From assembly GCA_963667195.1 (NCBI GenBank), contig OY762962.1, forward strand, positions 1,048,883-1,112,882: DNA of 64,000 nt. Reading direction: 5' to 3'. The translations under genes were made by a program, and so were the position numbers. Under the pieces are notes generated by a model. It was not told where the DNA came from. It saw nothing but the letters and a program-made list of their open reading frames with translations, and did no database searches. The stretch is from Christensenellaceae bacterium (GTDB lineage: Bacteria; Bacillota; Clostridia; Christensenellales; CAG-138). Below, piece after piece: positions 1 to 23,717 of this stretch; within the stretch, counting starts at the first letter, position 1, and the number at the start of each line of letters is the position of its first letter.

Positions 1-1
1 C

Positions 2-559: not shown

Positions 560-625
560 CCGGATAGAGAGCAGTATTGGTGCGATATGTAAAACAAGAA
601 AAAACGTAGGAAGACGCTCAAGAAA

Positions 626-1144: not shown

Positions 1145-1153
1145 CAAAAGCAA

Positions 1154-2365: not shown

Positions 2366-2381
2366 CGACTTACACCTAACT

Positions 2382-4930: not shown

Positions 4931-5030
4931 TTTTATACTATATTATACACATGCCGGGATATAAGCAAGAGATAACCATGACTGAAAGCGAGCAAGATGG
5001 AACCGTAGAATAGGTTGTCGGTTTAGGGTG

Positions 5031-5052
5031 TTAGGTGTGCCCGAAAGAATTC
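5031..5052 (-). repeat. partial direct copy of the tRNA-Arg 3' end (att-like)
   Basis: ttaggtgtgcccgaaagaattc here versus tttggcgtgcccgaaaggattc at 5217-5238. That is 19/22 identical, including an exact 11-mer, and it sits on the G+C boundary. Confidence 0.6.
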
Positions 5053-5179
5053 CTCCGCTTTTCCGTCCACTACTCGCTCACACCGCTCGCAGTTTGGCCG
5101 GCTGCGCTCCGCCTGCCGCCAAAAACGCCGACACCGCGGCGTTTTCTTCACGCGGCTCCGAATCCTCTCGAACGATATG

Positions 5180-5221
5180 CCAAAGCCAAAGACCACCCGT
5201 TTGGGTGGTCTTTGGCTTTGG
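5180..5221 (-). other. 19-bp perfect hairpin abutting and overlapping the CCA end of tRNA-Arg
   Basis: CCAAAGCCAAAGACCACCC-gttt-GGGTGGTCTTTGGCTTTGG. There is no U-run on either strand, so it is not a classical terminator. Confidence 0.6.
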
Positions 5222-5295
5222 CGTGCCCGAAAGGATTCGAACCTTCGACCCTCAGAGTCGGAGTCTGATACTCTATCCAGCTGAGCTACGGGCAC
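5219..5295 (-). tRNA. tRNA-Arg (anticodon CCG), CCA encoded
   Basis: The reverse complement folds as a cloverleaf. The acceptor is GTGCCCG/CGGGCAC, the anticodon stem TCAGA/TCTGA with loop CTCCGAC, and the T-arm contains GGTTCGAATCC. Length 77 nt. Confidence 0.9.
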
Positions 5296-5366
5296 ACAGG
5301 ATATGCGATTTTCTCGTGAAAACCCGCGTTGTTGCGGGGGATTTTCCCGCAAAGACGCGAAGCAGA

Positions 5367-6719
5367 TTATACCACAGGTTTCTTCTCGTAGCAATAGGCG
5401 ATCGCCTCGCCGATGGTTGCGACGGGCACGAGCTTGAGCCCCGCAATCTTCGGCGCCTTGGCGGATTTCGGCAGCAGCACGGTGTCGTAACCCAGCCGCA
5501 CGCACTCGTTAAGCCGCGTCTCAATCCGGCTTAATGCGCGCACCTCGCCCGTGAGCCCCACCTCGCCAAGCGCCGCTGTACGCGGCGGAAGCGGCAGATC
5601 CATCATCGCGGAAGCGACGCAGAGCGCAACCGCAAGGTCGGTGCTCCGCTCGTCGAGCCTGAGCCCTCCCACCACGTTGAGGTAGACGTCCTTGGTCGAG
5701 AGCCGCAGATGCGCCTTCTTTTCCAGCACGGCGAGCAACAGGCTCAGCCTTCCCGTATCCACGCCCGCGCTCGTTCTGCGTGGATTGCCAAACGCGTTGT
5801 CGGTGAGTAGAGACTGCACTTCCGCGAGAATCGGGCGCGTGCCCTCCATCGCGCAGGTGACGCAGCAGCCGGGCGCAATTTCGCCGGAGAGAAACAGCCG
5901 CGAAGGATCGGCAACCTCGCGCATGCCGCCGTCGCCCATCTCAAACACGCCAACCTCGTTGGTGGAACCAAAGCGGTTCTTCACCGCGCGCAGCAGGCGC
6001 AATCCCTCATGCCGGTCGCCTTCAAAATACAGTACCGTGTCCACGATGTGCTCCAGCACGCGCGGGCCCGCGATGTTTCCGTCCTTGGTCACGTGGCCTA
6101 CGATCAGCACGATCACGCCGGTTTCCTTGGCGTATCGCGTGAGCCGCGCGGTTGCCGCGCGCACCTGACTGACGCTCGCGGGCGCTCCCGCGCTCTCCTC
6201 GGAGATGATCGTTTGAATCGAGTCCACGATCAGCACGCTGCAACGCGCGTTGGTCGCCTCGTCGATGATCTGGTCAAGATCGGTTTCGCAGAGCACGTCG
6301 ATATCGTTCTTCATACCGAGGCGGTCGGCGCGCATCTTGATTTGGGACGCGCTCTCCTCGCCCGAGACATACAAAACGACGCCGTCTGCCGCGAGCGTAT
6401 CCGCCGCCTGCAAGAGAAGCGTCGATTTTCCGATGCCGGGATCGCCGCCAAGCAGTACCACCATGCCGCGGATGAGTCCGCCGCCGAGCACGCGATCCAG
6501 CTCGCTCATGCCCGCGGAGATTCGCTTTTGCGGCAGCGGCACCACCTTGCTGAGTTTTTGCGAAACTGCGGTTCCCGCGGGCGCGCTATTTTTCACCTTG
6601 ACCTCGGCAAACTCGGTCATGGTGTTCCAGCTGTCGCACTGCGGGCATTTGCCCATCCACTTGGCGGACTCGTAGCCGCATTCGCCGCAGATATAGGTGA
6701 CGCGATCCTTATTCGCCAT
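5367..6719 (-). CDS. radA: DNA repair protein RadA/Sms
   Basis: N-terminal zinc ribbon (CGECGYESAKWMGKCPQCDSWNT), Walker A motif GDPGIGKST and a Lon-like C-terminal domain; 450 aa. Confidence 0.95.
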   Translation of the reverse strand: MANKDRVTYICGECGYESAKWMGKCPQCDSWNTMTEFAEVKVKNSAPAGTAVSQKLSKVVPLPQKRISAGMSELDRVLGGGLIRGMVVLLGGDPGIGKSTLLLQAADTLAADGVVLYVSGEESASQIKMRADRLGMKNDIDVLCETDLDQIIDEATNARCSVLIVDSIQTIISEESAGAPASVSQVRAATARLTRYAKETGVIVLIVGHVTKDGNIAGPRVLEHIVDTVLYFEGDRHEGLRLLRAVKNRFGSTNEVGVFEMGDGGMREVADPSRLFLSGEIAPGCCVTCAMEGTRPILAEVQSLLTDNAFGNPRRTSAGVDTGRLSLLLAVLEKKAHLRLSTKDVYLNVVGGLRLDERSTDLAVALCVASAMMDLPLPPRTAALGEVGLTGEVRALSRIETRLNECVRLGYDTVLLPKSAKAPKIAGLKLVPVATIGEAIAYCYEKKPVV

Positions 6720-6720
6720 A

Positions 6721-7878
6721 TCAGTCGCTCACCCGGATGTATTTCCAGAGGATTTGATTTGGATCGCTCAGATCGCGCCAGAGGGCGTAATCCTCGCCCG
6801 CCATGACGAACTGCGCGTTGGAACCCGTCTCGCTGATGAGGTATGTTTTATCGTCCGCAAAGACGTAGGCATACACCGTTTCGTCGCGGCTGAATACCAC
6901 GCAGCTCTGCGTGATGTCAAAGTCGATCACGCCGCTGGCAATCTTCTTGGGTGCGCCGCCGCCAACGCTGACGTAGAGGTCGCTGTTTGCGTCGTGGTTT
7001 CCGCTGAGGTATGCCCAACGGTCGCCCGCGCTCTTGGGATCATGCACAAAGCTGCCCGCCGAGAAGTCCCAGCGGCTGTTATCGGAGAGCAGTACCGTGC
7101 GAATCAGGCTGCTGCCGGGGTTCTTCATGTCCGCGTCCGCATAGATCACCTGTCCGCTCTTGATCGAGGGCGCGCTCTCGGCATAGGCTGGGCTGTTGAG
7201 CACCGCAAGGGTGAGCAGTTCTCCGCTCGTCACGTCGCAGACCATCACCTTCGCGGTGGAGCCGTCGGTGCGCTCCGTCCAGACCGCGTAGGGCGATTCA
7301 AACAGGATCTTCGGGGTCTCCAGCGCATATTCCGCCAGGACCGCGGTCTCTCCCGTCGCTTTGTCGAGCTTGATGATGCTGCCGCCGCCCGCCGTCTTGC
7401 AGTCCGCGTACAGAATCACACTCTCGTTCTCCACGGGATAGCGAATCGTGTCGTTGAGGCGCGTGAGCGCGATGTTGGTAAACGCGCCCGTCTCGGGATT
7501 GAGGCGAACGAGCCTGTCGCAGGCGTTTTCGCTGGCGCCCGTCGCAAAGAGAATCTCACCCGCAAACACGCTGGGGTCGACCACCGCGGTGGGCAGCCCG
7601 TACCCTTCGCCGAACTGCACCGTCTTGACCTCGCGTGTCAAAATCGCGTTCTGCGGAGCGGAGGTCTTCCCGGCGGGCTCCGATGCGGGAGCGGCGCTGC
7701 CAAAAAGCGGCGCGCCGGATTCAATCCGCGCGTTGACGAGCGGCATTGCGACAAACACCACGAGCAACACGAGGGCAGCCAGCACACAAAGAGCGATGAT
7801 GAGCTTGATCAGCGGCCCATAACTCGTCGCGTCCAGATTCACCCTGCGTTTCGGGGTATAACTTAAGTTCTTATTCAT
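6721..7878 (-). CDS. signal-anchored hypothetical protein (beta-propeller-like), translationally coupled to radA
   Basis: N-terminal TM segment (LIKLIIALCVLAALVLLVVFVAM) followed by a repetitive beta-rich domain. Its stop TGA is 1 nt from the radA ATG. The start is uncertain (7878, 7896 or 7923). Confidence 0.6.
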   Translation of the reverse strand: MNKNLSYTPKRRVNLDATSYGPLIKLIIALCVLAALVLLVVFVAMPLVNARIESGAPLFGSAAPASEPAGKTSAPQNAILTREVKTVQFGEGYGLPTAVVDPSVFAGEILFATGASENACDRLVRLNPETGAFTNIALTRLNDTIRYPVENESVILYADCKTAGGGSIIKLDKATGETAVLAEYALETPKILFESPYAVWTERTDGSTAKVMVCDVTSGELLTLAVLNSPAYAESAPSIKSGQVIYADADMKNPGSSLIRTVLLSDNSRWDFSAGSFVHDPKSAGDRWAYLSGNHDANSDLYVSVGGGAPKKIASGVIDFDITQSCVVFSRDETVYAYVFADDKTYLISETGSNAQFVMAGEDYALWRDLSDPNQILWKYIRVSD

Positions 7879-8110
7879 ACGTTTCACGCCTTTCATTTTA
7901 CCGCACGCGCGAGGCCCGGTCAACGAAAGAAAGCGTGAACGAATGCCGAAGCGCGCGCGAATCGGCGCGATTTTTCAGCGCTTGTGATTCGTGCTTTTGT
8001 GCGCCTACAAAATATGGTATCATGATGGATAATGATATACGCTGAAATCAAAAGATTCTCAACGTCGTCATAGTGTTTTTACCCGAATTCATCCAAAAAG
8101 GAATTTTTCA

Positions 8111-9862
8111 ATGGCTTACCGCGCGCTCTACCGCCAATACCGCCCGACCCGCTTTGCCGATGTCATCGGGCAGGAGCACATCACAACCACACTGCGAAAT
8201 CAGGTGTCGTCGGATCGTCCGGCGCACGCCTATTTGTTCTGCGGCACGCGCGGCACGGGCAAAACCACCTCGGCGCGCATTCTGGCGCGCGCGGTCAACT
8301 GCCTCAGCCCCGAGGACGGCGAACCCTGCGGCAAATGCGAAGCATGTCTGATCACGGCAAGTGAGGGCGCTTCCGACATCACCGAGATCGACGCCGCGAG
8401 CAACAACAGTGTCAACGACGTGCGCGATCTCATCGAAAACGCGCAGTACGCGCCGCTCAATCTGCGCCGCCGCGTGTTCATCATCGACGAGGTGCATATG
8501 CTTTCGGGCGCGGCATTTAACGCGCTTCTTAAAACGCTTGAAGAGCCGCCGGAGCACATTCTCTTCATCCTCGCGACCACCGAGCCGCAGAAGCTGCCGG
8601 CTACGATCATCTCCCGCTGCCAGCGGTTCGATTTTCACCGGCTTTCAATGACAGACCTGAAAAAGACGCTCAAGAGCGTGCTGTCCCAGGCGGGCGCGTC
8701 GATCGAAGACGGCGGGCTCTCGCTGATTGCGCGCGCGGCGCAGGGCGGCATGCGCGATGCGCTGTCCCTCGCCGACCAGTGCCTCGCGTTCTGCGGAGAC
8801 AACGTGACCACGCAAAACGTCTACGACGTGCTGGGTAGCATGGAGGACGCGTTTTTATTCGATATGTCAAAGGCGCTGCTCGCCTCCAACGCACCGGACG
8901 CGCTGAGAAAGCTCGATTCCATCATGCAGGCGGGACGCGACCTTTCCGTCTTTGCCGCCGATCTCGCGGCGCATTTCCGCGCGCTGCTGCTGGCTAAGAC
9001 CTGCGGCAGATGCGAGGATTTATTGGACTGCACCGAGGACGAGATGACGCGCTATCTGGAGCAAGCCAAGGGTGCCTCCGAAGCGCGGCTGATGCTCGCG
9101 GTGGATCGCCTGATTGCGGCGCAAAACGACATGCGGTATCTGCCATCTCCACGCGCGCTGCTGGAAAGCGCGCTCATCCACATCTGCCGGCCGGAGGATT
9201 CCGTTTCGCTCGCGAATCTCGAATCGCGGCTCGACCGTCTGGAAGCGCAGATGAAGGATGGAATTCCGGCACAGGTTCCCGCAAAACAGAGCAGTGTGGA
9301 TGCACCTGCGGTGCAAGCCGCAAAGAAGGCGGAGCCAAAGCCCGCAAGGCAGGAACAGGCGCAGGACGAAGCCCCTTGGGCAGACCTGACCCCGCCGCCG
9401 GAAGATTGGCAGCCGGGCGAGACGTTTACCCCGCCTCCGCAGGAACCCGCGCCAAAGCCCGCGGCAACGCCCGCTCCCGCCGCAGCAAAGCACGAAACCA
9501 AACAGGAGGCGCACGCCGCCGCGCAGAAAGCAACGGCCGCGGCCGGTGCTTCCGGCGATCCCGCGGTGATCTGGCGCGAGGCGATTGCGAACATTCCCAA
9601 TATGTTCGTGCAGGCGCTGGCGAGGGAAGCGGTCGCTCTCCACTTTGAGCAAAACGCGCTGACGGTCGGATTCACCGAAGCGCAGGAGATGAAGCACAAG
9701 AGCCTTTCCGCGCCGATCAACTTTGAGCCGACACAGCGAGCATTGCAGATGGTCAAACCCGACGCAAAGCTCGTGATCACGACGACAAAAGCAGCCCCCG
9801 CAAGCGGACAGGCAGAAGAACTCGCCAAAGCGCTGTTCGGGGACAAACTCACGATACAGTAA
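8111..9862 (+). CDS. dnaX: DNA polymerase III subunit gamma/tau
   Basis: MAYRALYRQYRPTRFADVIGQEHI..., Walker A motif GTRGTGKTT and a zinc module CGKCEAC, with a Pro/Ala-rich linker; 583 aa. Confidence 0.95.
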   Translation: MAYRALYRQYRPTRFADVIGQEHITTTLRNQVSSDRPAHAYLFCGTRGTGKTTSARILARAVNCLSPEDGEPCGKCEACLITASEGASDITEIDAASNNSVNDVRDLIENAQYAPLNLRRRVFIIDEVHMLSGAAFNALLKTLEEPPEHILFILATTEPQKLPATIISRCQRFDFHRLSMTDLKKTLKSVLSQAGASIEDGGLSLIARAAQGGMRDALSLADQCLAFCGDNVTTQNVYDVLGSMEDAFLFDMSKALLASNAPDALRKLDSIMQAGRDLSVFAADLAAHFRALLLAKTCGRCEDLLDCTEDEMTRYLEQAKGASEARLMLAVDRLIAAQNDMRYLPSPRALLESALIHICRPEDSVSLANLESRLDRLEAQMKDGIPAQVPAKQSSVDAPAVQAAKKAEPKPARQEQAQDEAPWADLTPPPEDWQPGETFTPPPQEPAPKPAATPAPAAAKHETKQEAHAAAQKATAAAGASGDPAVIWREAIANIPNMFVQALAREAVALHFEQNALTVGFTEAQEMKHKSLSAPINFEPTQRALQMVKPDAKLVITTTKAAPASGQAEELAKALFGDKLTIQ

Positions 9863-9956
9863 CTGTAATTGTTATATAGTAAGTAAAGATAAATTCAGCA
9901 CGATACAGTAAATACAATAGTTAATAAGTAAAGATATTTTCAGGAGGAACTTTTTT

Positions 9957-10304
9957 ATGGCAAAAGGCGGATTTCCCGGCGGAATGGGCGGTATGGGCGG
10001 CGGCAACATGCAGCAGCTCATGATGAAAGCGCAGAAGATGCAGCAGGACGTGGCGCGCGCGCAGGCGGAGCTCAACGAGCGTGAGTTTGTCGCGAGCAGC
10101 GGCGGCGGCATGGTAACCGTCACCGTCACCGGCAACAAGGACGTGAAAGCCATCGTCATCAACCCCGCGTGCGTCGATCCCGACGACGTGGAGATGCTGC
10201 AAGACCTCGTGCTTAGCGCGGTCAACGAGGCACTCCGCACCGCGACCAAGACCGTTGAGGACGAAATCGGCAAGATCACGGGCGGTCTGGGGCTCGGCCT
10301 GTAA
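9957..10304 (+). CDS. ybaB: YbaB/EbfC family nucleoid-associated protein
   Basis: 115 aa with a Gly/Met-rich N-terminus and the canonical position between dnaX and recR. A GGAGG RBS precedes it. Confidence 0.9.
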
Positions 10305-10306
10305 CT

Positions 10307-10903
10307 ATGCTCACCATTGAACCCATCGTCCGGCTGACCACGCAGCTTTCGCGCCTGCCCGGCATCGGGCAAAAGACCGCGCAAAGGCTTGCTTACCATA
10401 TTCTCGATCTGCCGCTCCCGCAGGCGCAGGAGCTTTCGGCAGCGATCATAGCCGCGCGGGAAAAGGTTGTGGACTGCCCGATCTGCGGCACGTATACGGA
10501 CGTTACCCCTTGCGGCATCTGCGCGGACACGAGCCGCGACGGAAGCATACTCTGTGTGGTTTGCGACGCAAAGGATGTCATCGCGATGGAGCGCACGCGC
10601 GAATTCCACGGAAAATACCACGTGCTGCACGGCGTATTGTCGCCCGTGGACGGCGTAGGCCCAGGAGACATCCGCATCAACGAGCTGGTCGAGCGCGTCA
10701 AAGCAGGCGGCGTGAAGGAAGTCATCCTCGCGACCAATCCGGACGTGGAAGGCGAAGCAACGGCGAGCTATATCGCACGTCTGCTCAAACCCATGGGAGT
10801 GAGCTGCACGCGCATCGCGCACGGCATCCCCATCGGCGGCAACCTCGAATACACGGACGAGGTCACACTGGCAAAGGCGATGGAAGGCAGACGGCAACTC
10901 TAA
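10307..10903 (+). CDS. recR: recombination protein RecR
   Basis: HhH region [15 protein letters not shown], a C4 zinc finger ([16 protein letters not shown]) and a Toprim domain; 198 aa. Confidence 0.95.
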
Positions 10904-10911
10904 CGGCGAAT

Positions 10912-10942
10912 AAAAAATAACGGCATGTACCGTTATTTTTTT
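10912..10942 (+). terminator. rho-independent terminator after recR
   Basis: Hairpin AATAACGG-catgta-CCGTTATT followed by a T-run. Confidence 0.75.
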
Positions 10943-10954
10943 GCGATTTTTTCG

Positions 10955-11959
10955 TTATAAGCACACCCGATACGCCGTCGGGAGCGCGTGGGATTCGTCC
11001 AGCAGAATCCAGCCTACCGGCAGGGTTTTCGCCGAAACCTCGGCGGCGCAGACGCGCATGTGCCACTCGATATGAGTGAAGATGTGCTTGCGCTCGTAGA
11101 AGCGCAGCTCGCCCACTGGAGCGATGCCGTGTTCGCCAAGCCACGCCGCGCACGCCGCGTCCGAAAGTTCTCCCGCGGTCTCCGGCAACTGCCACAATCC
11201 CGCGAGCAGGCCGCTGTCGGGTCGGCGGAAGCCGATGAGTTGACCTTCGATCGTGAGCGCGAAGACGGTCTTGCGCTCGATCTTTCTCGCTTTTTTCGCG
11301 GAGAGCACGGGCAGCTCCGCTGTCCGGTTTTCGCGGAAGGCGACGCAACTTTCCCGCACGGGGCATTCCGCGCACACAGGCTTCCCGTTTGGCAGGCAGA
11401 CGGTCGCGCCAAGCTCCATCAGCGCCGCGTTGAACACGCCCGGTTCTTCCGCAGGTATGAGCAGCAAGAGGAACGCGCGCACCTCTTTTTTGAACGCGGG
11501 ATCGCGGATGTCCCGCGCCGCGCCGAAGAGCCGCGCGTAGACGCGCAGCACGTTTCCATCCACGGCGGGCACGTTTTCGCCAAACGCGATGGACGCGATT
11601 GCGCCCGCGGTGTATTCCCCGATGCCGGAGAGGGTGATGAGCTCCTCGTAGTTTTGCGGCATGCTGCCGCTGAAACGCGAAACGATCTCTCCCGCCGCCT
11701 TCTTCAAATTTCTTGCGCGGCTATAGTAGCCCAAGCCCTCCCAGAGCTTGTGCAGGCGGTCGTCGTCCACGTGTGCCAGCGCGGATACATCCGGCAACTC
11801 GCGCAGAAACCGCTCGTAATACGGTATCACGGCGGCAACCCGCGTCTGCTGGAGCATGATTTCGCTGACCCAGACCGCGTAGCCGTCGCGTGTTCTGCGC
11901 CAGGGAAGATCCCGCGCGTTTTTGTGATACCAATCTAATAATGGTGTGATCCAGTCCAT
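10955..11959 (-). CDS. mutY: A/G-specific adenine glycosylase
   Basis: MDWITPLLDWYHKNARDLPWRRTRDGYAVWVSEIMLQQTRV..., an HhH-GPD domain, an Fe-S Cys cluster and a NUDIX-like C-terminus. The start is taken at the MDWITP Met; the ORF is open up to 12088. Confidence 0.9.
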   Translation of the reverse strand: MDWITPLLDWYHKNARDLPWRRTRDGYAVWVSEIMLQQTRVAAVIPYYERFLRELPDVSALAHVDDDRLHKLWEGLGYYSRARNLKKAAGEIVSRFSGSMPQNYEELITLSGIGEYTAGAIASIAFGENVPAVDGNVLRVYARLFGAARDIRDPAFKKEVRAFLLLLIPAEEPGVFNAALMELGATVCLPNGKPVCAECPVRESCVAFRENRTAELPVLSAKKARKIERKTVFALTIEGQLIGFRRPDSGLLAGLWQLPETAGELSDAACAAWLGEHGIAPVGELRFYERKHIFTHIEWHMRVCAAEVSAKTLPVGWILLDESHALPTAYRVCL

Positions 11960-12108
11960 AGCAACAGTATAACATACAAGTTTCACGCATTTTGTGTGAA
12001 AAATGCGCGGAGAATTTCGCCATAGTATGCTATACTGTGTTTCTGAACAGTGCATTTGTCCGCAAATTAGCGGAGAAATAGCGACCAAACCACAGAGGTG
12101 AAGAAAAC

Positions 12109-12678
12109 ATGGATTACACGGAACTGACCCGTCAGGCGGCGGAGGCGGTCGATCATCTGCTCGCGAGCGCGGAATACCGCAAGGGCGATATATTCATCAT
12201 CGGCTGCTCGACGAGCGAAATCGTAGGTAAGCGCATCGGCTCCGCGTCCAGCGAAGAGGCCGCAAAGGCCGTCATGGACGCGATCCTGCCGAAGGTGACC
12301 GAGGCGGGGTTATATCTTGCCGTGCAAGGTTGCGAGCACATCAACCGCGCGATCTGCACAAGCCGTGCCTGCATGGAGCAATATCACTTGCAGGAAGTCT
12401 GGGTGCGACCCTGGCTGCACGCGGGCGGAGCCTTTGCGACCGAGGCATACAACCGCATCCCCGACCGCGTGATGGTGGAAAATGTAGCAGGCAGTGCGGC
12501 TCTCGGCATGGACATCGGCGGCACGCTGATCGGCATGCATCTGCATCCCGTCGTGGTGCCGGTGCACATCGACCAGCGCAAGATCGGCGAGGCTTCGTTC
12601 ATTTTAGCAAAGACGAGACCCAAGTATGTCGGCGGCCCGCGCGCGCAATACGGCGAGGACGAGCCCGCCCATAGATAA
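12109..12678 (+). CDS. TIGR01440/DUF436 family conserved protein
   Basis: 189 aa; the ...KGDIFIIGCSTSEIVGKRIG...LAVQGCEHINRAI... pattern is typical of this family (recollection). Confidence 0.75.
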   Translation: MDYTELTRQAAEAVDHLLASAEYRKGDIFIIGCSTSEIVGKRIGSASSEEAAKAVMDAILPKVTEAGLYLAVQGCEHINRAICTSRACMEQYHLQEVWVRPWLHAGGAFATEAYNRIPDRVMVENVAGSAALGMDIGGTLIGMHLHPVVVPVHIDQRKIGEASFILAKTRPKYVGGPRAQYGEDEPAHR

Positions 12679-12693
12679 GGCGTTTACACCGAA

Positions 12694-12729
12694 AAGGAGC
12701 ACTAAATGTAGTAGAGTGCTCCTTTTTTA
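12694..12729 (+). terminator. rho-independent terminator
   Basis: Hairpin GGAGCACT...AGTGCTCC followed by TTTTTT. Confidence 0.8.
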
Positions 12730-12819
12730 TATAGCATAAAGAGCTCAGAAGTGCGCATAAAAAACAGAAAAAGCGCCCAAACATTGGATTTGTTCGGACA
12801 TATTATACAAAAAAATACA

Positions 12820-12849
12820 TTGCAATTTGATAAACGAGTGTACTATACT
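12820..12849 (+). promoter_or_regulatory. sigma-70-type promoter candidate
   Basis: TTGCAA (12820-12825), an 18-nt spacer, then TATACT (12844-12849). The predicted transcription start near 12856 coincides with the first base of the long closing helix of the downstream structured region. Confidence 0.5.
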
Positions 12850-12855
12850 AGCTTT

Positions 12856-13088
12856 GGTATCCGCGTATCGGGTCTGTGGTTGAAAATCGATGCCAGTCGC
12901 AGGCAAAACGATCCACGTAAGCGGGCAAAGCCCCGTGAGCATGGTGCGGTCTAGAAGTAAGTCCAACCGAAGCATATCTAAAACATGCATTTCGAGAGAG
13001 GCAGTAGTGAGAGGCACATCGCCGGGTAGCGACACTTCCAGTTGGCGGGTGTGGGGGCAAAAACCAGGTCAGCCGGCACTCGGGTATC
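12856..13088 (+). ncRNA. candidate structured RNA (6S-like rod architecture, or a long 5' leader of the zinc-ribbon gene); family unassigned
   Basis: A ~395-bp gap with no convincing ORF and its own promoter. The 5' arm 12856-12881 pairs with the 3' arm 13062-13088: GGUAUCCG with CGGGUAUC, UCGG with CCGG, CUG with CAG, UGGUU with AACCA. Internal helices include GCAUG 12939-12943 with CAUGC 12984-12988. No terminator precedes the CDS at 13125. Confidence 0.35.
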
Positions 13089-13124
13089 AAAAAATTTCAC
13101 GAACCGAAAAGGGGAAAAATCCAA

Positions 13125-13397
13125 ATGTTCCAAGACAAAACACTGGTATGCAAGGATTGCGGTAAGGAATTCGTCTTTACGGCCGGCGAGCAGGAGTTTT
13201 ACGCGGAGAAAGGGTTCCAGAACGAGCCTGTCCGCTGCAAAGATTGCCGCTCCAGCCGCAAGACCACACGCAGCAACGACCGCGAGATGTTCGATGCGGT
13301 CTGCGCAGAGTGCGGGGCGCCCACCAAGATCCCGTTCCAACCCAGAAACGACCGTCCCGTCTACTGCAGCAACTGCTTCCAGAACCACAAGCGCTAA
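13125..13397 (+). CDS. zinc-ribbon domain protein (two CxxC pairs x2)
   Basis: 90 aa with CKDCGKEF...CKDCR and CAECGAPT...CSNCF motifs. Confidence 0.8.
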   Translation: MFQDKTLVCKDCGKEFVFTAGEQEFYAEKGFQNEPVRCKDCRSSRKTTRSNDREMFDAVCAECGAPTKIPFQPRNDRPVYCSNCFQNHKR

Positions 13398-13458
13398 CGC
13401 ATTCCCCTTATTCCGTTCTCGGATATAATCGGAATCAGAGTTTACAAAACGACCTGAG

Positions 13459-13496
13459 AGGCGTTTTCCGAAAGGGAGACGCCTTTTCCGATTTTT
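13459..13496 (+). terminator. rho-independent terminator
   Basis: 11-bp stem AGGCGTTTTCC-GAAA-GGGAGACGCCT followed by a T-rich tail. Confidence 0.8.
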
Positions 13497-13583
13497 GGGG
13501 ATGCGCTTCCCGCGCTTGCCAGCAAATGGCGCACGTGTTATGCTTTTCAATGTCAATCATCGAAGAAATCGAGGAAGATACAT

Positions 13584-14795
13584 ATGGAATCCGTCAAAGA
13601 CCGCTTTTTGCGATATGTCAAAATCGACACCCAGTCCCAGCACCACGTGGACAAAGTCCCCAGCACCGACAAGCAGCTGGACTTAAGCCGCCTGCTGCGT
13701 GACGAGCTCATCGCCATCGGGGCAAGTGATGTTGCGCTCGATTCGCACGGGTATGTGACCGCAACGATCCCCGCGAACACGGCGAAAGTCGCACCCGTCA
13801 TCGGGCTGCTTGCGCATGTGGACACCTCGGACGCGGTGACCGGCACAAATGTGAAACCCAAACTCACACCCAACTACGACGGCGGCGACATCGACATGGG
13901 CAACGGCTACACGCTCTCTCCCGCAAGCTCTCCCGCGCTCTTGCAGCACATCGGCGAGGAGATTATCTGCACGGACGGCACGACGCTGTTGGGCGCGGAC
14001 GACAAGGCGGGCGTCGCGGAGATCATGACGTTTGCGGAGCGGATGCTACGCGCGGATGCGCCGGAGCACGGCAAAATCCGCATCGGCTTTACGCCGGACG
14101 AAGAGGTCGGCCGCGGCGTGGATTTGTTTGACGTTGCCGCTTTTGGAGCGGACTTCGGCTATACGATCGACGGCGGCACACTGGGCGAGATCAACTACGA
14201 GTGCTTCAACGCCGCGAGCGCGGAGATCAACATCAGCGGCGTCAGCGTGCACACCGGCAGCGCGAGAGGGCGCATGGTCAACGCGTCGCTGGTCGCGATG
14301 GAACTGCACGAGCTCCTGCCGCGCTTTGAAAACCCCGCCTGCACGGACGAGTACGAGGGCTTCTTCCACCTCGACAAGCTGGAAGGCTGCGTCGATCACG
14401 CGTATCTGTACTACATTCTCCGCGATCACGACGCGGAGAAATTCGCGCAAAAAAAGGCGCTGATGGAGAAGGCCTGCGCGTATCTCAACGAGAAATACGG
14501 CGCGGGAACGGTCTCCCTGAAGTTGGAGGATACCTATTTCAACATGAAGTCCAAGATTCCGATGGAGATCGTGGAGCAAGCACAGCGCGCGATGGAATCC
14601 GTCGGCATGAAGCCGTACTGCGCGCCCATCCGCGGCGGCACGGACGGCTCGCGGCTCAGCTACATGGGTCTGCCCTGCCCGAACCTCTGCACCGGCGGAC
14701 ACAGCTTCCACGGGCGTTATGAGTTCATCAGCACGCAGGCGATGGAAAAGGTGGTTGGGCTTCTCGAAGCGCTGATTCCCTCGTTTGTAAAGTAA
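13584..14795 (+). CDS. pepT: peptidase T (tripeptide aminopeptidase, M20B)
   Basis: MESVKDRFLRYVKIDTQS..., with HVDT and GADDKAG metal-ligand motifs; 403 aa. Confidence 0.95.
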   Translation: MESVKDRFLRYVKIDTQSQHHVDKVPSTDKQLDLSRLLRDELIAIGASDVALDSHGYVTATIPANTAKVAPVIGLLAHVDTSDAVTGTNVKPKLTPNYDGGDIDMGNGYTLSPASSPALLQHIGEEIICTDGTTLLGADDKAGVAEIMTFAERMLRADAPEHGKIRIGFTPDEEVGRGVDLFDVAAFGADFGYTIDGGTLGEINYECFNAASAEINISGVSVHTGSARGRMVNASLVAMELHELLPRFENPACTDEYEGFFHLDKLEGCVDHAYLYYILRDHDAEKFAQKKALMEKACAYLNEKYGAGTVSLKLEDTYFNMKSKIPMEIVEQAQRAMESVGMKPYCAPIRGGTDGSRLSYMGLPCPNLCTGGHSFHGRYEFISTQAMEKVVGLLEALIPSFVK

Positions 14796-15079: not shown

Positions 15080-15216
15080 GATTTGTCACTTCCGTTCCGA
15101 TCAAACTTGGACTGATTGCGAGATCATCATATTCCCGTGTGGGAGGGTTGTCAATGCGAGATCAATTGAAACGAGGCGCTTTAAGAACAAACATATTTGC
15201 GTATTTGAGCTAGTCT

Positions 15217-16542
15217 TTATTGCGCATTGGTATTGATCAAGGGCAATATCTGCTCGATTGCCCCGGGCACCACGCTCACAATATCAATGCCGACGAACGT
15301 CGAACCACGCCGGTAGGTAAACAGCATCCCAATCACGCCGGTAGTCCCTTTTCGATCATCGAACCGATAGACGTAGCAATCTTGTCCCAAAACGGTTTCG
15401 CGGCTGAACGAGCCGTTCAGTACATCGACCTTGCCATCCTTGTCAAAGTCAAACAACCAAGGAAGAAGGGTGTCAAAGAAATCCCTGCCGGATACCGAGT
15501 CCATCCAGTTCCCGGTGGAATTCGCCGTGTAGATGAACACCATGTGCTGTATGTCTTTCTCGTAGCCGCAATACTCCAAGTCAAGATTGCCGTCCTTGAG
15601 AAAGTCCCGATATGCTTTGTTGCGCGCGTCCTCACCCGTCTCGCTCACAGTGACTTTGTTAAATTCGTCCAGCGTCTCGCGATTGTAGTATTCCCATCCA
15701 GCCGGACTGTCAAACTTCAGACCAAGGAACGCGCTGTCAAATCCTTTCTCTCCGATTTGCGGCATGCTGTAAGATTCGATGGAAGGATAGTCGCTGTATT
15801 GATAGAGGCTGTCGATCACATCCTGCAACATTTGTTCGCTCGGGCACATCAAATTGACATATGCAAACGTGCTATCCTTCTGAACGGCAAACAGCGCGCA
15901 ATAGCCGTATGCCGCATCCATGGGCAGTTCAAAGCGGGTCATCGGATGTTCGGTGTCTCCGAGCTTGATCGTATCCTTTCGAATATTCAACGCGTCGATC
16001 GTCCCGTCACTGCCAATGTCGCAAATCGAGGCAGCGTAGGCATCCACCGCTTCCTGTTCGGACAGAACCCCCGTTCCGTTATCCGAATTATCCTTGAGCA
16101 GGACGAGTATCATTTCGTTCGCGGATTTATTGTATCCAACATAATCATAGATGGTTTGTCCGTTCTTCAAGAGCGTTTGATATTCCTTTAAATACGCTTC
16201 CGCATTGCTCCCATCTGCCTTGATCATGTTTAGTAGATCGATATAGCTGCGATTGTAGGCCTTCCAACCATCGGGCAAGCGAAAGCCGAGGTCGAAATAC
16301 TTGCTCAAATAGCCAGTATCGTCACCTACACCCAATGAAAAGGAATCGACGTTCGGTTCCGGCGTTGGCGCGGGCGTCGGCGTTGGCGTGGGTGACGGTG
16401 TTGGCGTCGCGGTCGGCGTCGGACTTGGCGTCGGCGTAGGCGAAATCAGCTGCGCAAGGTCAGCGCAGCCAGTGAATGTAGCGAGCATGAATACCGCCAT
16501 CACCAGCGCGATGACGGTTTTGGTTCGATTGTACGTTTGCAT
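15217..16542 (-). CDS. lipoprotein with Pro/Thr linker and two tandem copies of an uncharacterised domain
   Basis: Start ATG at 16542 behind AAAGGAGAAAAA. Signal peptide and lipobox ...LATFTGC, with a PT-rich linker (about 16356-16446). Two homologous halves: FSLGVGDDTGYLSKYFDLGFRLPDGW... and GFDSAFLGLKFDSPAGW... Confidence 0.8.
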   Translation of the reverse strand: MQTYNRTKTVIALVMAVFMLATFTGCADLAQLISPTPTPSPTPTATPTPSPTPTPTPAPTPEPNVDSFSLGVGDDTGYLSKYFDLGFRLPDGWKAYNRSYIDLLNMIKADGSNAEAYLKEYQTLLKNGQTIYDYVGYNKSANEMILVLLKDNSDNGTGVLSEQEAVDAYAASICDIGSDGTIDALNIRKDTIKLGDTEHPMTRFELPMDAAYGYCALFAVQKDSTFAYVNLMCPSEQMLQDVIDSLYQYSDYPSIESYSMPQIGEKGFDSAFLGLKFDSPAGWEYYNRETLDEFNKVTVSETGEDARNKAYRDFLKDGNLDLEYCGYEKDIQHMVFIYTANSTGNWMDSVSGRDFFDTLLPWLFDFDKDGKVDVLNGSFSRETVLGQDCYVYRFDDRKGTTGVIGMLFTYRRGSTFVGIDIVSVVPGAIEQILPLINTNAQ

Positions 16543-16622
16543 TTTTTCTCCTTTGATATGACAAGCTGCAGGCGATGCTGCCGCCCTGCACGCTTGCGCA
16601 AGGCGGCAACCGCCATGATGGA

Positions 16623-17390
16623 TTATTTCACCACGTAGAAGGTCTTGAGAATTCCGTCGATGGTCGCGGGATCGACGGCGTCGATGATGATCATCGCAAA
16701 CGTTGTGCCCTGTTTGAGCACGAAGAACGCGCCGTTCATCTGCTTGCCGTTCGACTTCATGTCGTAGCGGTAGACGGGATGCTCCGTGCCGAGCAGATCG
16801 GTCACGACGAGCTTGAGGTTCTTCGCGTCGGATTTTGAATCGCCGTTGTAATCCGTCGCCCAAGTTTGCATCGCCTGCATGACCGCAAACTCGGTGTGCT
16901 GTGCCGATCCTTCGGAAGTGTAATCCAGCAAAATGATCATCATGTAATCATCGCCTTCATACGGCATCGCATAGAGATCATACACGAGCTTGCCCTGTTT
17001 GAGCATGTCGATGTATTCCTGAGTGATCACGGACGTGCTCTTTCCCGTCGTGTCGATTTCGTTCACGAGGTTCATCTGGTCCGGCGTATAGAGATACCAG
17101 TTATTCGGCGCGGGAAATCCGAAGCGGAAGTAGCTGTTGTAGTAACCATTCGGCCCGCCAAAGCCGAGCTTGAGAGAATCGACCGTCACCGCCGGAGTCG
17201 GACTCGGCGTAGGGCTCGGTGTGGGCGTGGGTGTCGGTGTCGGCGTCGGCGTCGGGGTCGGCGTCGCGGTCGGGGTTGCGGTCGGCGTCGGCGTTGGCGA
17301 AATTGCCTGCATGATCTCCGCGCAGGCGGTAAGCGACAGCATGCTCGCGAGCGCGAGCAGCAGCGCGATCGATCGGGTCAAGCGTTTCAT
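16623..17390 (-). CDS. lipoprotein paralog (single domain) with Pro/Thr linker
   Basis: RBS AGAGGAGAA, lipobox LSLTAC and a 36-aa (T/S)P linker. The domain begins LKLGFGGPNGYYNSYFRFGFPAPNNW. Confidence 0.8.
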   Translation of the reverse strand: MKRLTRSIALLLALASMLSLTACAEIMQAISPTPTPTATPTATPTPTPTPTPTPTPTPSPTPSPTPAVTVDSLKLGFGGPNGYYNSYFRFGFPAPNNWYLYTPDQMNLVNEIDTTGKSTSVITQEYIDMLKQGKLVYDLYAMPYEGDDYMMIILLDYTSEGSAQHTEFAVMQAMQTWATDYNGDSKSDAKNLKLVVTDLLGTEHPVYRYDMKSNGKQMNGAFFVLKQGTTFAMIIIDAVDPATIDGILKTFYVVK

Positions 17391-17427
17391 ACGTTCTCCT
17401 CTATCTTTCTCGTTCAAAAGCCACAGA

Positions 17428-18171
17428 TCACGCTGTCATCGGCTGGAACATCGCGAGGAGCTCCGCCGTGTGATCCACGCCGACGGAGCTGACGTAGACG
17501 TTCATCATATAATCACCCTGTTGGAAGATGACCTGCGCGTCATACGTCGTGTATCCGCCGCTGTCGTAAGAGAAGAACCAACAGGACTGCTCTTTTCCAA
17601 GGAACATCGTCGTGGTGTGCTCGTCGCGCACGATCTCGGCTCCGGCACCGGTGAGCGCCTCGCGGATCAGCTTGATGTTCGCTTCGTGATAGTCCGCAAC
17701 GCTGCTAAACGCTGTCATCGCGTTCTTCGCGTCGCTGACGATAACGCTGATCTCCGCAAGCCCCGTGTTTAGGTGCGCGCTGTACTCCTGAACCGGCAGA
17801 CCCTTCGGCAGATAATCGAGGTATTCCGACTGGCGCAGATCCTTGGGAATCTCCATCGGGAAGCTGCTGAGGGTGTCCAGCTCGGCACTGGTGGCCACAA
17901 ACCATTTGTCGTTGAGATCGATTTTCATGTTGAAATACTCGTTTTGATAGGATAAACCCGTGCTCAATCCAAATGTGATCGGGTAGATTTCACGATAGGG
18001 TGTGGGGCTCGGCGTGGGCTCCGGCGTCGGCGTTGGCGCAAGGGTTGGCGTCGCCGTCGGCGTCGCGGTCGGCGTGGGTTCGATGATTGCCGTGATGCTT
18101 TGACAAGAGACAAGCGTGAACCCTGTGAGAATACACAACAGTAATGCGATGATTCTTTTTCGAAGCTGCAT
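17428..18171 (-). CDS. lipoprotein paralog (single domain) with Pro/Thr linker
   Basis: RBS GGGAGG, lipobox TLVSC and a PT linker. The domain begins ITFGLSTGLSYQNEYFNMKIDLNDKW. Confidence 0.8.
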   Translation of the reverse strand: MQLRKRIIALLLCILTGFTLVSCQSITAIIEPTPTATPTATPTLAPTPTPEPTPSPTPYREIYPITFGLSTGLSYQNEYFNMKIDLNDKWFVATSAELDTLSSFPMEIPKDLRQSEYLDYLPKGLPVQEYSAHLNTGLAEISVIVSDAKNAMTAFSSVADYHEANIKLIREALTGAGAEIVRDEHTTTMFLGKEQSCWFFSYDSGGYTTYDAQVIFQQGDYMMNVYVSSVGVDHTAELLAMFQPMTA

Positions 18172-18310
18172 AGTGCCTCCCGGACGCGTTTTCTCCACTT
18201 TAGCACAGTAAAACGGTATATACAAGTAAAATAACAGCGCTGTGTATAATATTCTATTGCACAATATCCCGGCGCTTCTCCGCCGCCAACGCGCCTGTAC
18301 TGTGCGTACA

Positions 18311-18386
18311 CAAAAAAAGCTCCCCCAAATGGAGGAGTTTTGCTGGTAGCGTTGGGTCGCGTTACGCGAATGCGTGATAGATGGCC
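18311..18386 (-). repeat. displaced copy of the lysC 3' end (last 8 codons plus stop) and terminator
   Basis: The reverse complement encodes AIYHAFA*, identical to the lysC C-terminus with one synonymous change (GCA versus GCG). A CTCCTCC/GGGGGAG hairpin and T7 run are retained. Confidence 0.85.
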
Positions 18387-18395
18387 GCCCTTACG

Positions 18396-19550
18396 TTATC
18401 GCTTTTGGGGTTGCCCGTTTGCTGAAAACAAAGCATCCGGGTTGATTCCAACGAAGGTCTTCATGATATCATAGTTGACCGAGACGATCTTGTCCCGAGA
18501 CAATAACAGGTTCATCTCTTTCAGCTCGTCGAGATCTCTCCGAATCGTGCGCTCGCTTTTTACCGAGGCGTAGATGGACTTTGCCAATACATCTGTTCTC
18601 TTTAGTATTGCGCTTTCTTCGATTCTTAAGTCAAACTTCATCATTACACTGATCAATGCGTGCTGCCTTTGCGAGATTTCTTTGGTCTGAAATTTTTCTT
18701 CCACATAGTTCATAAAGCAAATGCGCGAATACTCCTGCATCACCTTGTCGAAATTCGCTTGCAGTTCGGAGCAAAATCCGTTGAGCGAGAACAAGACGAA
18801 ACGCTGCAAGTTACCATTGTACTTGAATCTTGCTTCATCCAGTTGCGAAAAATACTCATCTCTGTTCTTATAGTAGAAATTTGACAGTGAAAAGAAGCTT
18901 GCCTTGTTGTAATTGCTGTTGTACAGAATACAGTCTTCCAGCATTCTGGACGTTCTGCCGTTTCCATCGGAAAACGGATGGATCGTAACAAGATAGAAAT
19001 GCGCAACCACTGCGCGGATCAACTCTCCCCACCCTTTGACGGTGTCTGAATTGATATATTGAATAAACGCTCGCATCTGCTCTGGAATGTGCTCAAACCG
19101 TTCTCCTTCAAAGTTATGCCCGACTTTGATCTTCTGCAATCGATACTGCCCGGGGACATTATCGTTCTGTTTCAAACTGTCAGTGAGGATTGCATGGAGC
19201 TTCTTGATCATTTCTTCTGTAACGCAGCACTCGCCCGCACCAATCTTCTCGTCGATGATCGCGCGAAGTGCGCGATATGCGTTATAGGTCTCTCTCTCCT
19301 CGGAATCCCTTGGCGTTTGTCCGCGAATGATATCCTCAACCGCTTCCTCCGAAAGCGTATTGCCCTCAATCCCAGTCGTTCCTTTTACCTGATGAATAAT
19401 CTGCAGCCGATTCAGCTCCGTGTGGAGGCGCACGGTCAGCGGCGCCTTTGACAGGGCATCCTTCAACGTATCGATTCTCGCATTTAGAGCCGCGAGCTCT
19501 GGATCGAGAAGATCGATTCCCGCATCATACTTTATCTTCCAATATGACAT
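18396..19550 (-). CDS. Fic/DOC family protein (putative AMPylase)
   Basis: Fic motif HPFSDGNGRTSR and the N-terminal inhibitory-type motif TTGIEGN. The ORF is open to 19562 (GTG); ATG at 19550 is preferred. Confidence 0.9.
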   Translation of the reverse strand: MSYWKIKYDAGIDLLDPELAALNARIDTLKDALSKAPLTVRLHTELNRLQIIHQVKGTTGIEGNTLSEEAVEDIIRGQTPRDSEERETYNAYRALRAIIDEKIGAGECCVTEEMIKKLHAILTDSLKQNDNVPGQYRLQKIKVGHNFEGERFEHIPEQMRAFIQYINSDTVKGWGELIRAVVAHFYLVTIHPFSDGNGRTSRMLEDCILYNSNYNKASFFSLSNFYYKNRDEYFSQLDEARFKYNGNLQRFVLFSLNGFCSELQANFDKVMQEYSRICFMNYVEEKFQTKEISQRQHALISVMMKFDLRIEESAILKRTDVLAKSIYASVKSERTIRRDLDELKEMNLLLSRDKIVSVNYDIMKTFVGINPDALFSANGQPQKR

Positions 19551-19661
19551 TGTTTTTGTCACTCCACTATTTTAATATTTTTCAATAATTACAAGCGTTT
19601 TATATAAATTACATTACATTTTGTCAATATATTTGTCAACACATTATGCACAACAATTTTG

Positions 19662-19737
19662 CAAAAAAAGCTCCTCCGAATGGAGGAGCTTTGCAGGTTG
19701 CGTTGGGTCGCGTTACGCGAACGCGTGATAGATGGCC
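19662..19737 (-). repeat. gene-proximal copy of the 76-bp repeat (functional lysC 3' end plus terminator)
   Basis: Contains the lysC stop codon and the perfect hairpin AGCTCCTCC-gaat-GGAGGAGCT, followed on the minus strand by T7. Confidence 0.85.
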
Positions 19738-22567: not shown

Positions 22568-22648
22568 TAATATCTGTCGCAATTTCGGACGTTTTGCAGA
22601 TTTATTCGATATATCTGCATATTACGCAAAACATATGTCGAAAACCCT

Positions 22649-22693
22649 TTATTCTCCGAGCGTTGCGACCATGACTGCCTTGATCGTATGCAT
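22649..22693 (-). repeat. displaced copy of the argF 3' end (last 14 codons plus stop)
   Basis: 42/45 identical to 22734-22778. Both copies translate to [14 protein letters not shown]. The three differences are all synonymous (GCA/GCG, CTC/CTG, GAA/GAG). Confidence 0.85.
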
Positions 22694-22701
22694 GCACTTC
22701 T

Positions 22702-22726
22702 ATATATATTTTTTTAAAATATATAT
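22702..22726. repeat. perfect all-A/T palindrome between the two argF 3'-end copies
   Basis: ATATATATTTT-ttt-AAAATATATAT (11-bp arms). Confidence 0.85.
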
Positions 22727-22733
22727 CTATAAA

Positions 22734-23717
22734 TTACTCTCCCAGCGTTGCGACCATGACCGCCTTGATCGTATGCATACGATTCTCCGCCTCGTCAAAC
22801 ACCACGCTGTGCTTCGAGCGGAACACCTCATCGCTGGCTTCCATCTCGCGGAGCCCGTATTTTTCGAAGATCTCTCTGCCGACAACCGTCTCCAGATCGT
22901 GGAAGCTCGGCAGGCAGTGCAGAAACAGCGCGTCCGGGTTACCGGTCTTCTGGAGCAAGTCCAGCGTCACGCGGTACGGCTCCAGCAGCTTGATTCGTTC
23001 CGCAAACTGCGCTTCCTCACCCATGGACACCCAAACGTCGGTGTACACCGCGTCCGCGCCGCGCACCGCGTCGAGAGATTCCGAAAACTCGATCACCGCA
23101 CCCGTGGATTTGGCGAGCTCCCGCATCCGCGCGGTCAGGCCCTCTTCCGGCCAGAGCGCGCGCGGGGCAATCGCTGTAAACTTCATGCCCATCTTCGCGG
23201 AGCCGATCATCAGCGAATTTCCTATGTTGTTGCGCGCGTCGCCGACATAGCACAAGTGAATCTCCTTCAGCGGCTTTTTCGCGTGCTCCTCGATGGTCAT
23301 GAAGTCCGCAAGAATCTGCGTCGGATGGTCGGTGTCGGTGAGCCCGTTCCAAACCGGCACGCCGGAGTAGCGCGCGAGGTCTTCCACGATCTGCTGACCG
23401 AATCCGCGGTACTCGATCGCGTCATAATAGCGACCCAGCACCTTCGCCGTGTCTTCCAGAGACTCCTTCTTGCCCATCTGGCTGTTGCTCAGATATGTCA
23501 CATGCGCGCCTTCGTCCAGCGCCGCAACCTCAAACGCGCAGCGGGTGCGCGTGCTGGTCTTGTCGAAGATCAGCACGATGTTCTTGTGCTTGAGGCGTTC
23601 GGGAAACACGCGCTCGCGCTTTTCGCGCTTGAGCGCGTGGCTCAGGTCGAGCAAGTAGCGAATCTCTTCGGGGGAATAATCGAGCAGGGTTAAAAAGCTT
23701 CTTCCGCGCAGGTTCAT
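22734..23717 (-). CDS. argF: ornithine carbamoyltransferase
   Basis: STRTR and HCLP motifs, with a GGAGG RBS upstream of the ATG at 23717; 327 aa. The position next to arcA suggests a catabolic (arcB-like) role. Confidence 0.95.

Follow-up and report, generated by a model that had tools for sequence, protein, structure and literature searches.

Repeat architecture and gene content behind lysC

We analysed a 64,000-nucleotide stretch of a Christensenellaceae bacterium (contig OY762962.1 of assembly GCA_963667195.1, positions 1,048,883 to 1,112,882 of the forward strand), referred to here as the window, in which a lone Fic gene lies directly behind the aspartate kinase gene lysC and is enclosed by two copies of the lysC 3' end (Table 1). 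A first-pass annotation had described 76-bp direct repeats of the gene end and its terminator, and the repeat is present as described: the copies are identical at 70 of 76 positions, start 1351 nt apart and consist of 25 nt of lysC followed by 51 nt that, in the inner copy, lie downstream of the gene. The 25-nt coding part occurs exactly twice in the window, against zero occurrences expected in shuffled sequence. A search for the repeat hairpin as a dispersed element in the 64 kb matched the lysC copies only. The conserved gene whose end is duplicated, lysC, forms the left homology flank of the islet. The hairpin of the inner copy (19667–19692) folds at −18.9 kcal/mol (z = −5.1) and that of the outer copy at −12.8 kcal/mol; the latter copy still encodes AIYHAFA* with the single synonymous change (gcg to gca) that had been read there, is contiguous with the downstream lipoprotein region and has a right flank that runs into sequence orthologous to the related loci L104 and L001. 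The 1275 bp between the copies (18387–19661) hold a 111-nt AT-rich leader and one credible gene, Fic, in agreement with the first description.

Table 1. Features of the lysC–Fic locus (window coordinates).
Feature	Position	Strand	Evidence or content
lysC, aspartate kinase, 438 aa	19713..21029	−	NCBIfam NF006540, 539 bits (cut-off 434); Pfam AA_kinase and ACT_9
Inner repeat copy	19662..19737	−	Last 25 nt of lysC including TAA, 20-nt spacer, then terminator hairpin and T-run
Predicted Fic promoter and leader, AT-rich (22.5% G+C)	19551..19661	−	TTGACA boxes, candidate −10, ribosome-binding-site box
Fic gene, 384 aa from ATG	18396..19550	−	Pfam PF02661; PADLOC SoFic; AF2 model; Foldseek
Filler, 9 nt (cgtaagggc), between Fic stop codon and outer repeat	18387..18395	−	Junction common to the window, L092 and L103
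Outer repeat copy	18311..18386	−	Pseudo-end of lysC (25 nt), spacer, hairpin and T7 run
Rest of variable region: three paralogous Pro/Thr-rich lipoprotein-like genes	15158..18310	−	Open reading frames (ORFs) 17428–18264, 16623–17417, 15217–16863

Translation of the Fic gene could also begin at an upstream GTG (19562), giving 388 residues. The Fic domain matches PF02661 (E = 6e-17; 62.7 bits against a cut-off of 24), and the catalytic motif HxFx(D/E)GNGRxxR is present as HPFSDGNGRTSR at residues 191–202; across 37 homologs, H191, F193, D195, G196, N197, G198, R199 and R202 are invariant. In class II Fic proteins (classes of Engel et al., 2012, as summarized in PMC12249575) the inhibitory helix, with the motif (S/T)xxxE(G/N), belongs to the polypeptide of the Fic core and is N-terminal to that core. 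The class II assignment made in the first-pass annotation holds, because, in an alignment with FICD and 7xux, the stretch TTGIEGN (residues 58–64) matches TVAIEGN of FICD and precedes the catalytic loop, with about 130 residues between it and the catalytic motif; T58, E62 and G63 are invariant among the homologs. The C-terminal part of the protein is a helical, winged-helix-like domain.

Profile hidden Markov models (HMMs) place the protein near SoFic. The PADLOC SoFic model (PDLC03963) matches residues 46–364 over profile positions 52–356 of 361 with E = 1.1e-53, and the NCBIfam SoFic equivalog model (NF046030) gives 49.2 bits, below its cut-off of 550, which makes the protein a distant relative of the SoFic family rather than an equivalog. 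The AlphaFold (AF2) model has a predicted local distance difference test score (pLDDT) of 89.9, and Foldseek aligned it over its full length (375–399 columns) with Coxiella Fic2 8cil, 7xux, Shewanella SoFic 3eqx and also 3zec, at only 16–22% sequence identity. Ratios of nonsynonymous to synonymous divergence (dN/dS) of 0.055–0.068 in comparisons with L103 and L092, and of 0.02–0.07 over all comparisons, indicate purifying selection on the intact gene. The earlier label of a toxin or defence-type enzyme agrees with the PADLOC match, and HMM and fold similarity together point to a putative defence function. Exact-protein look-ups of the window lysC and Fic products returned no identical record.

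The cassette had also been credited with its own promoter, composed of tandem TTGACA boxes and a TATAAA element at 17-nt spacing. Both boxes are present on the minus strand (19639–19634, at −89 from the ATG, and 19627–19622, at −77) and TATAAA lies 17 nt past the second box (19604–19599), but the spacing that relatives conserve is that of the first box, 17 nt and TAATGT, a candidate −10 element at 19616–19611. The ribosome-binding-site box GGAGTGACAAAA occupies 19565–19554. Three TGACAAAA boxes, TGACA(AAA), can be distinguished on the minus strand (window 19634–19639, 19622–19627 and 19557–19562), and in ten of ten lineages compared (the window, L012, L081, L085, L088, L092, L093, L094, L102 and L103) TGACA boxes stand at −88 to −90, −76 to −78 and −11/−12 from the Fic ATG, with diverged sequence between them. 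The first of these is the −35 box, with a TAnnnT −10 element 17–18 nt away, and the third overlaps the ribosome-binding site; the three may together be operators through which Fic, by its C-terminal winged-helix-like domain, regulates its own gene. A simple consensus promoter scan did not call the Fic promoter. Conservation of the boxes across relatives is in keeping with the separate promoter first proposed, from which Fic appears to be read. The proposal that the outer hairpin and its T7 run terminate Fic stands in so far as the hairpin folds and is suitably placed; the outer copy is probably the terminator of the Fic transcript, and the inner copy would leave lysC intact and terminated. A functional lysC–Fic operon was considered and dropped, since the two genes are set apart by a strong terminator and a distinct promoter.

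The cassette is AT-rich relative to its surroundings, with a G+C content of 44.4% overall, 46.3% in Fic (58% at third codon positions, GC3) and 22.5% in the promoter stretch, against 58.8% in lysC (GC3 82%) and a window mean of 56%; the figure of about 65% first given for lysC was too high. Since 9.9% of Fic-sized windows in the 64 kb are equally or more AT-rich than Fic, the composition of the cassette is low, not extreme. Among orthologs (L081, L093, L085, L088, L094, the window and L012) Fic ranges from 34.8 to 49.0% G+C beside a steady 57–59% in the adjacent lysC, a spread that would reflect either amelioration at different stages or allele lineages long separated.

Occupancy of the lysC 3' site in related genomes

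A scan of one genome per species with lysC gave 80 loci from uncultured Christensenellaceae-like Clostridia. The lysC alleles closest to that of the window (99% amino-acid identity) are all without Fic. In the near-conspecific contigs L104–L108, lysC (97–98% nucleotide identity to that of the window) is followed by a single repeat copy and the same lipoprotein genes, with no Fic and with flanks that are 94–97% identical on both sides. Window 25998–19662 aligns with L104 86–6368 and window 18386–16403 with L104 6293–8277, the two alignments overlapping by exactly 76 nt; these contigs are precise empty sites with one repeat copy. Further empty sites are seen in L001 and, for other lineages, in L050, L006 and L004. 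Comparison with Fic-less relatives thus agrees with the insertion at the lysC 3' end that had been claimed, and the contrary case that had been raised, of no empty site anywhere, falls away because L104–L108 and L001 are such sites. Measured against the single copy of L104, all six differences between the two copies in the window are derived states; two fall in the inner copy and three or four in the outer one, so that the age of the last homogenization or duplication roughly matches that of the divergence from the Fic-less strains. The L104 copy was also considered as an inner/outer chimera, the footprint of a deletion; this idea was dropped, since the copy has the ancestral state at all six variable sites, which leaves gain and loss of Fic indistinguishable.

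Other genes occupy the same spot. L005, the closest relative of a Fic-positive lineage, carries PD-Lambda-1 there (7449–8834; PADLOC E = 1e-149), a different single defence gene with its own TTGACA/TATAAT promoter and no flanking repeat. In L109 neither Fic nor the three lipoprotein genes are found, and lysC is joined directly to window position 15157. The contents seen 3' of lysC therefore comprise Fic (the window), an empty site (L104–L108 and L001), PD-Lambda-1 (L005), lipoproteins only (L003) and nothing (L109). Because PD-Lambda-1 in L005 and variable lipoprotein arrays share the spot, the site 3' of lysC is a small hotspot where variable genes collect, defence genes among them; PD-Lambda-1 in that position and purifying selection on Fic would indirectly support a defence role for the latter.

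The lipoprotein-like genes of the window (15217–18264) have no Pfam match, and the first of them likely starts at 18171. Their array varies from zero to six copies among the near-conspecific contigs L104–L115 (zero in L109), and they share 76% amino-acid identity with those of L001, compared with 98% for lysC. The deep-branching L046 has a diverged N-terminal Fic relic (a 79-residue ORF) followed by a hexapeptide-repeat acetyltransferase and a DUF4256 protein (7514–9215).

Wherever the contig of a Fic ortholog includes upstream sequence (66–91% amino-acid identity), the ortholog follows lysC immediately and on the same strand. This applies to L012, L081–L084, L085–L087, L088–L091, L092–L095, L102 and the contig of P0026, representing at least eight lineages. 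The 94% identical ortholog L103 is on a contig that begins inside the inner repeat, with lysC outside it, and the most diverged ortholog, P0026, was read as gene order only (DUF1015–lysC–Fic). Three kinds of neighbour follow the orthologs: a beta-eliminating lyase, a 75-residue ORF and then an M20 peptidase, or lipoproteins. Fic relics in L002 and L113 retain a promoter piece and residues 167–207, including HPFLDGNGRTSR. Since orthologs down to 66% sit at lysC and decayed relics exist, Fic would be a long-standing resident of the site, and in the lysC tree Fic-positive and Fic-negative lineages are interleaved. Downstream of lysC in 45 Fic-less or distant relatives, no second lysC-end copy was found at E < 0.01 except unrelated short repeats, a threshold below which the diverged copy of L012 also falls.

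Under 66%, the identity of Fic homologs falls to about 40%, and these homologs are mobile-element cargo. P0027 (L098 5001–7728) is a homolog of about 40% identity at one edge of a prophage-like region, with an ImmA-like peptidase on one side and a large serine recombinase on the other, and P0029 (L100 2495–6143), of similar identity, follows a VirB4-like ATPase inside a Tcp-type conjugative element.

Elsewhere in the window, a raiA RNA motif (Rfam RF03072; 182.7 bits, gathering score 101.3) lies on the plus strand at 12863–13081, between an M20 peptidase region and DUF436/MutY genes. Positions 1–4930, with a G+C content of about 43–45%, encode a GT87-family glycosyltransferase and an NAD-dependent epimerase/dehydratase and end near a tRNA-Arg (5219–5295); this may be another variable region, for surface polysaccharide.

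Origin and turnover of the islet

Each Fic-positive genome encloses the gene in its own version of the lysC end and/or terminator. The lysC portion of the outer copy extends over 25 nt in the window, L092 and L103, 33 nt in L094, 34 nt in L088, about 40 nt in L102, 41 nt in L085 and 48 nt in L012 (diverged, 53/72); in L081 and L093 it is missing and only the hairpin is repeated (29–33 nt), so that total repeat length ranges from 29 to about 85 nt between lineages. Intact repeats have their right edge where the terminator T-run ends, give or take a few nucleotides. In L092 the outer copy ends after 39 nt without a hairpin, and the outer hairpin of L012 is a different sequence. The spacer from stop codon to hairpin has an identity of 0.70–1.00 between the two copies of one genome and is unalignable between genomes (mean identity 0.32–0.48), and lineage-specific coding substitutions occur in both copies in L094, L102 and L092. 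The window and L092 have a common junction and related filler, and so a single ancestral event behind them, but derived states peculiar to each are found in both of its copies, which requires concerted change after their split. Two loci are mosaics. The inner spacer of L103 is of the type native to its Fic-less conspecifics, L111 and L112, and its outer spacer is of the L113/L002 type; in L102 the coding part and hairpin are alike in the two copies and the spacers differ. Taken together, the repeats are neither a fixed element-borne att site nor a target duplication of fixed length.

These observations bear on the idea of repeated independent insertions, in which transposition-like or nick-and-fill events would each have duplicated a long local target behind the lysC terminator. 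Staggered cuts might give a right edge that is always at the terminator end and a left edge that varies, and the near-identity of the copies within several genomes, together with lineage-specific non-coding spacers, has the form expected of such events. We nevertheless consider this history very improbable. Simple local target duplication is excluded because the copies of L103 and L102 carry different spacers, and the window, L092 and L103 represent one junction and one event, yet the window and L092 differ in both copies. The cassette contains no transposase, its ends bear no inverted repeats, the duplication length is not fixed (29 to about 85 nt) and no donor copies were found outside the lysC site.

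Contigs that are otherwise identical reveal exchange at the locus. L081 and L082 differ at 12 positions in 250 nt of the 3' part of lysC (7501–7750) within otherwise identical DNA. L081 and L084 differ at 163 positions in 750 nt (L081 5897–6650), covering the end of DUF1015 and the start of lysC, and then almost nowhere over 10 kb; L089 and L088 are likewise otherwise identical, with dense substitution clusters in DUF1015/lysC. Such clustered tracts carry the signature expected of short homologous-recombination imports from diverged relatives, and they account for identical Fic proteins beside different lysC alleles. Divergence at synonymous sites (dS) bears on the history of the gene. Between the window and L103 the Fic dS of 0.57 is close to the host background, a DUF1015 dS of 0.55 between the window and L111 (same lineage as L103). 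Between the window and L081, Fic is 71% identical at the nucleotide level with saturated dS, whereas the DUF1015 dS is 0.47. Recalibration with DUF1015 thus leaves an excess of Fic dS between subfamilies that vanishes within the window/L103 subfamily. Saturation of Fic dS was also considered as a proof of horizontal transfer, an argument weakened by the lysC GC3 of 82% and by unconstrained spacers that are likewise unalignable between lineages. The match within a subfamily and the excess between subfamilies indicate descent that is partly vertical and partly by exchange of old alleles; the pattern fits old and divergent Fic alleles, partly inherited and partly exchanged between related species at one locus.

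A purely vertical history, with a single ancestral insertion, many losses, no horizontal movement and copies kept alike only by gene conversion within each genome, would explain the arrangement conserved in all orthologs, the relics as loss by decay, the co-variation of the two copies with the host and the agreement of dS between the window and L103. It is nonetheless unlikely in our view, failing on the deep divergence of alleles and on the mosaics: the Fic subfamilies are far more diverged than host genes (as between the window and L081), and the inner and outer spacers of L103 derive from two alleles of the same species. Fic composition (35–49% G+C) departs from the steady 57–59% of lysC, identical Fic proteins stand beside lysC alleles that differ by recombination tracts, and about eight or more independent losses, read off the lysC tree, would be needed.

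The first-pass annotation had called the cassette a complete, minimal integration module with no recombinase. The variable edges, host-like repeats, restriction to lysC and long residence leave the module unsupported. Its lack of a recombinase agrees with our scans, weak negatives of partial coverage: none was found in the ten window ORFs scanned (1154–14795 and 22635–23693) or among the genes next after lysC in those relatives that were checked. Copies of the segment elsewhere, on plasmids, phages or at other sites, had been envisaged, and a search for them returned no close copy and none at any non-lysC site; a scan of viral contigs found no relative, and phage and plasmid homologs are at most 30% identical.

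Integration by a tyrosine recombinase classically leaves a direct repeat that takes in the 3' end of a conserved gene. The islet could accordingly be imagined as a decayed integrative element of the cis-mobilizable (CIME-like) kind that entered site-specifically at an attB in the lysC 3' end, supplied a replacement lysC end and later lost everything but Fic, its repeats being attL and attR and perhaps still recombined in trans. The form of the repeat, the AT-rich cassette and the mobile-element cargo P0027 and P0029 favour this origin, and Fic is the sole gene between direct repeats at a target-gene 3' end, with no integrase or transfer genes. Against it, partial scans downstream of lysC in relatives and of ten window ORFs found no integrase, and an inspection, itself partial, of about 45 related loci found no integrase-bearing element at lysC. 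An element-side arm should travel with the cargo; in most lineages the substitutions found in the outer pseudo-lysC arm are instead those of the host lineage, the foreign outer spacer of L103 being the exception. Repeats range in extent from 29 to about 85 nt across lineages, and no copy was found away from lysC or on viral, phage or plasmid records. We judge a decayed element to be improbable overall. It is plausible as the origin of the duplication and unsupported as a current mechanism, because the partial scans found no integrase and the repeats mostly follow the host.

Recombination-driven turnover of a hotspot islet fits the data better than a self-integrating cassette. The explanation that we favour, with moderate confidence, is an old and selectively maintained single-gene islet of SoFic type (class II Fic, AMP-transferase), with a putative defence or toxin role, in a hotspot 3' of lysC, with its own promoter and with the outer copy as terminator, that turns over by homologous recombination. 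It draws on what was observed directly, namely the anatomy, the empty sites, the conserved arrangement, the co-variation of copies, the mosaics, the relics and the recombination tracts. The islet would not be self-mobile; its presence, allele type and loss would be governed by homologous recombination, with lysC as the left homology and, as a short right homology, the duplicated lysC terminus and hairpin, whatever lies downstream. Recombination between the repeat copies would delete Fic cleanly and leave an empty site, and either recombination or gene conversion, from one copy to the other or with Fic-less alleles, would keep the copies like the resident lysC end in most lineages.

Several points weigh against this explanation. 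The recombination route is read indirectly, from sequence patterns in metagenome assemblies, and many of the contigs are short and repeats can break or mis-join assemblies. RecA-dependent exchange would be rare over homologies as short as 25–85 nt. A site-specific or illegitimate event must have made the first duplication at least once, and the differing repeat lengths could mean several independent insertions. The recombinase scan covered the genes immediately following lysC in some of the relatives, and a recombinase encoded at another place in the genome could act in trans. Finally, the defence activity of Fic is predicted only from HMM and fold similarity, with a score far from the NCBIfam equivalog cut-off (49 against 550 bits).

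A more ambitious proposal, which we put forward tentatively, makes the duplicated terminus, rather than a passive scar, the working part of a portability device that needs no recombinase: as the cargo brings along a conserved gene end, it would permit insertion behind lysC in any relative, independently of the downstream sequence, and scarless loss, and an old polymorphism of divergent SoFic alleles would circulate across species. Entry could be by double crossover, lysC serving as the left arm and the outer copy as the right one, or by excision of a circle between the repeats followed by Campbell-type recombination of that circle.

Relation to known systems

The locus adds a diverged, intact SoFic-type gene from an uncultured Clostridia clade and presents the lysC 3' site as a small defence hotspot that holds SoFic, PD-Lambda-1 or nothing. 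It may serve as a worked example of a repeat of a gene 3' end that resembles an integrase footprint and is maintained and reshaped by homologous recombination and gene conversion, and it cautions against calling 'integration modules' from repeats alone. If the repeats do act as portable homology arms, they would offer a simple means for single defence genes to spread and be shed without a mobility enzyme.

SoFic is a single-protein anti-phage defence system of class 2 Fic type (Millman et al., 2022, as cited in PMC12249575). The window protein shares with it the catalytic motif HPFSDGNGRTSR, the N-terminal (S/T)xxxE(G/N), a length of about 380 residues with a C-terminal domain, the PADLOC match, the fold and the status of a lone gene with its own predicted promoter; it differs in being 16–22% identical to solved relatives and in scoring 49 rather than 550 bits on the NCBIfam equivalog model. 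The SoFic of E. coli has a small downstream antitoxin gene, AS1 (PMC12249575), whereas the window Fic has no AS1-like gene, only 9 nt separating its stop codon from the repeat. Class I Fic toxin–antitoxin modules of the VbhT/VbhA type (Engel et al., 2012, as cited in PMC12249575) likewise use a Fic-domain AMP-transferase restrained by a glutamate-bearing inhibitory helix; the window Fic holds this helix in its own chain, as class II proteins do, and there is no partner gene in the cassette.

With respect to its architecture, the islet may be compared with two kinds of mobile DNA. A CIME is a decayed integrative element that keeps attL and attR (PMC5704250). Short cargo without integration or transfer genes and direct repeats that include the target-gene 3' end are common to both, but no cognate integrase-bearing element was found here, the repeats co-vary with the host in most lineages and their extent differs. 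The minimal mobile elements of Neisseria consist of variable cargo between conserved genes, exchanged by recombination in the flanks (PMC3787668). Here too the content of the site varies among the closest relatives, mobility genes are lacking and substitution tracts in and around lysC hint at frequent homologous recombination in the flanks. Natural transformation is not known in these uncultured organisms. The differences from the Neisseria elements are that the downstream flank is not conserved between lineages and that the cargo carries a copy of the end and terminator of the upstream gene, a possible right homology of its own.

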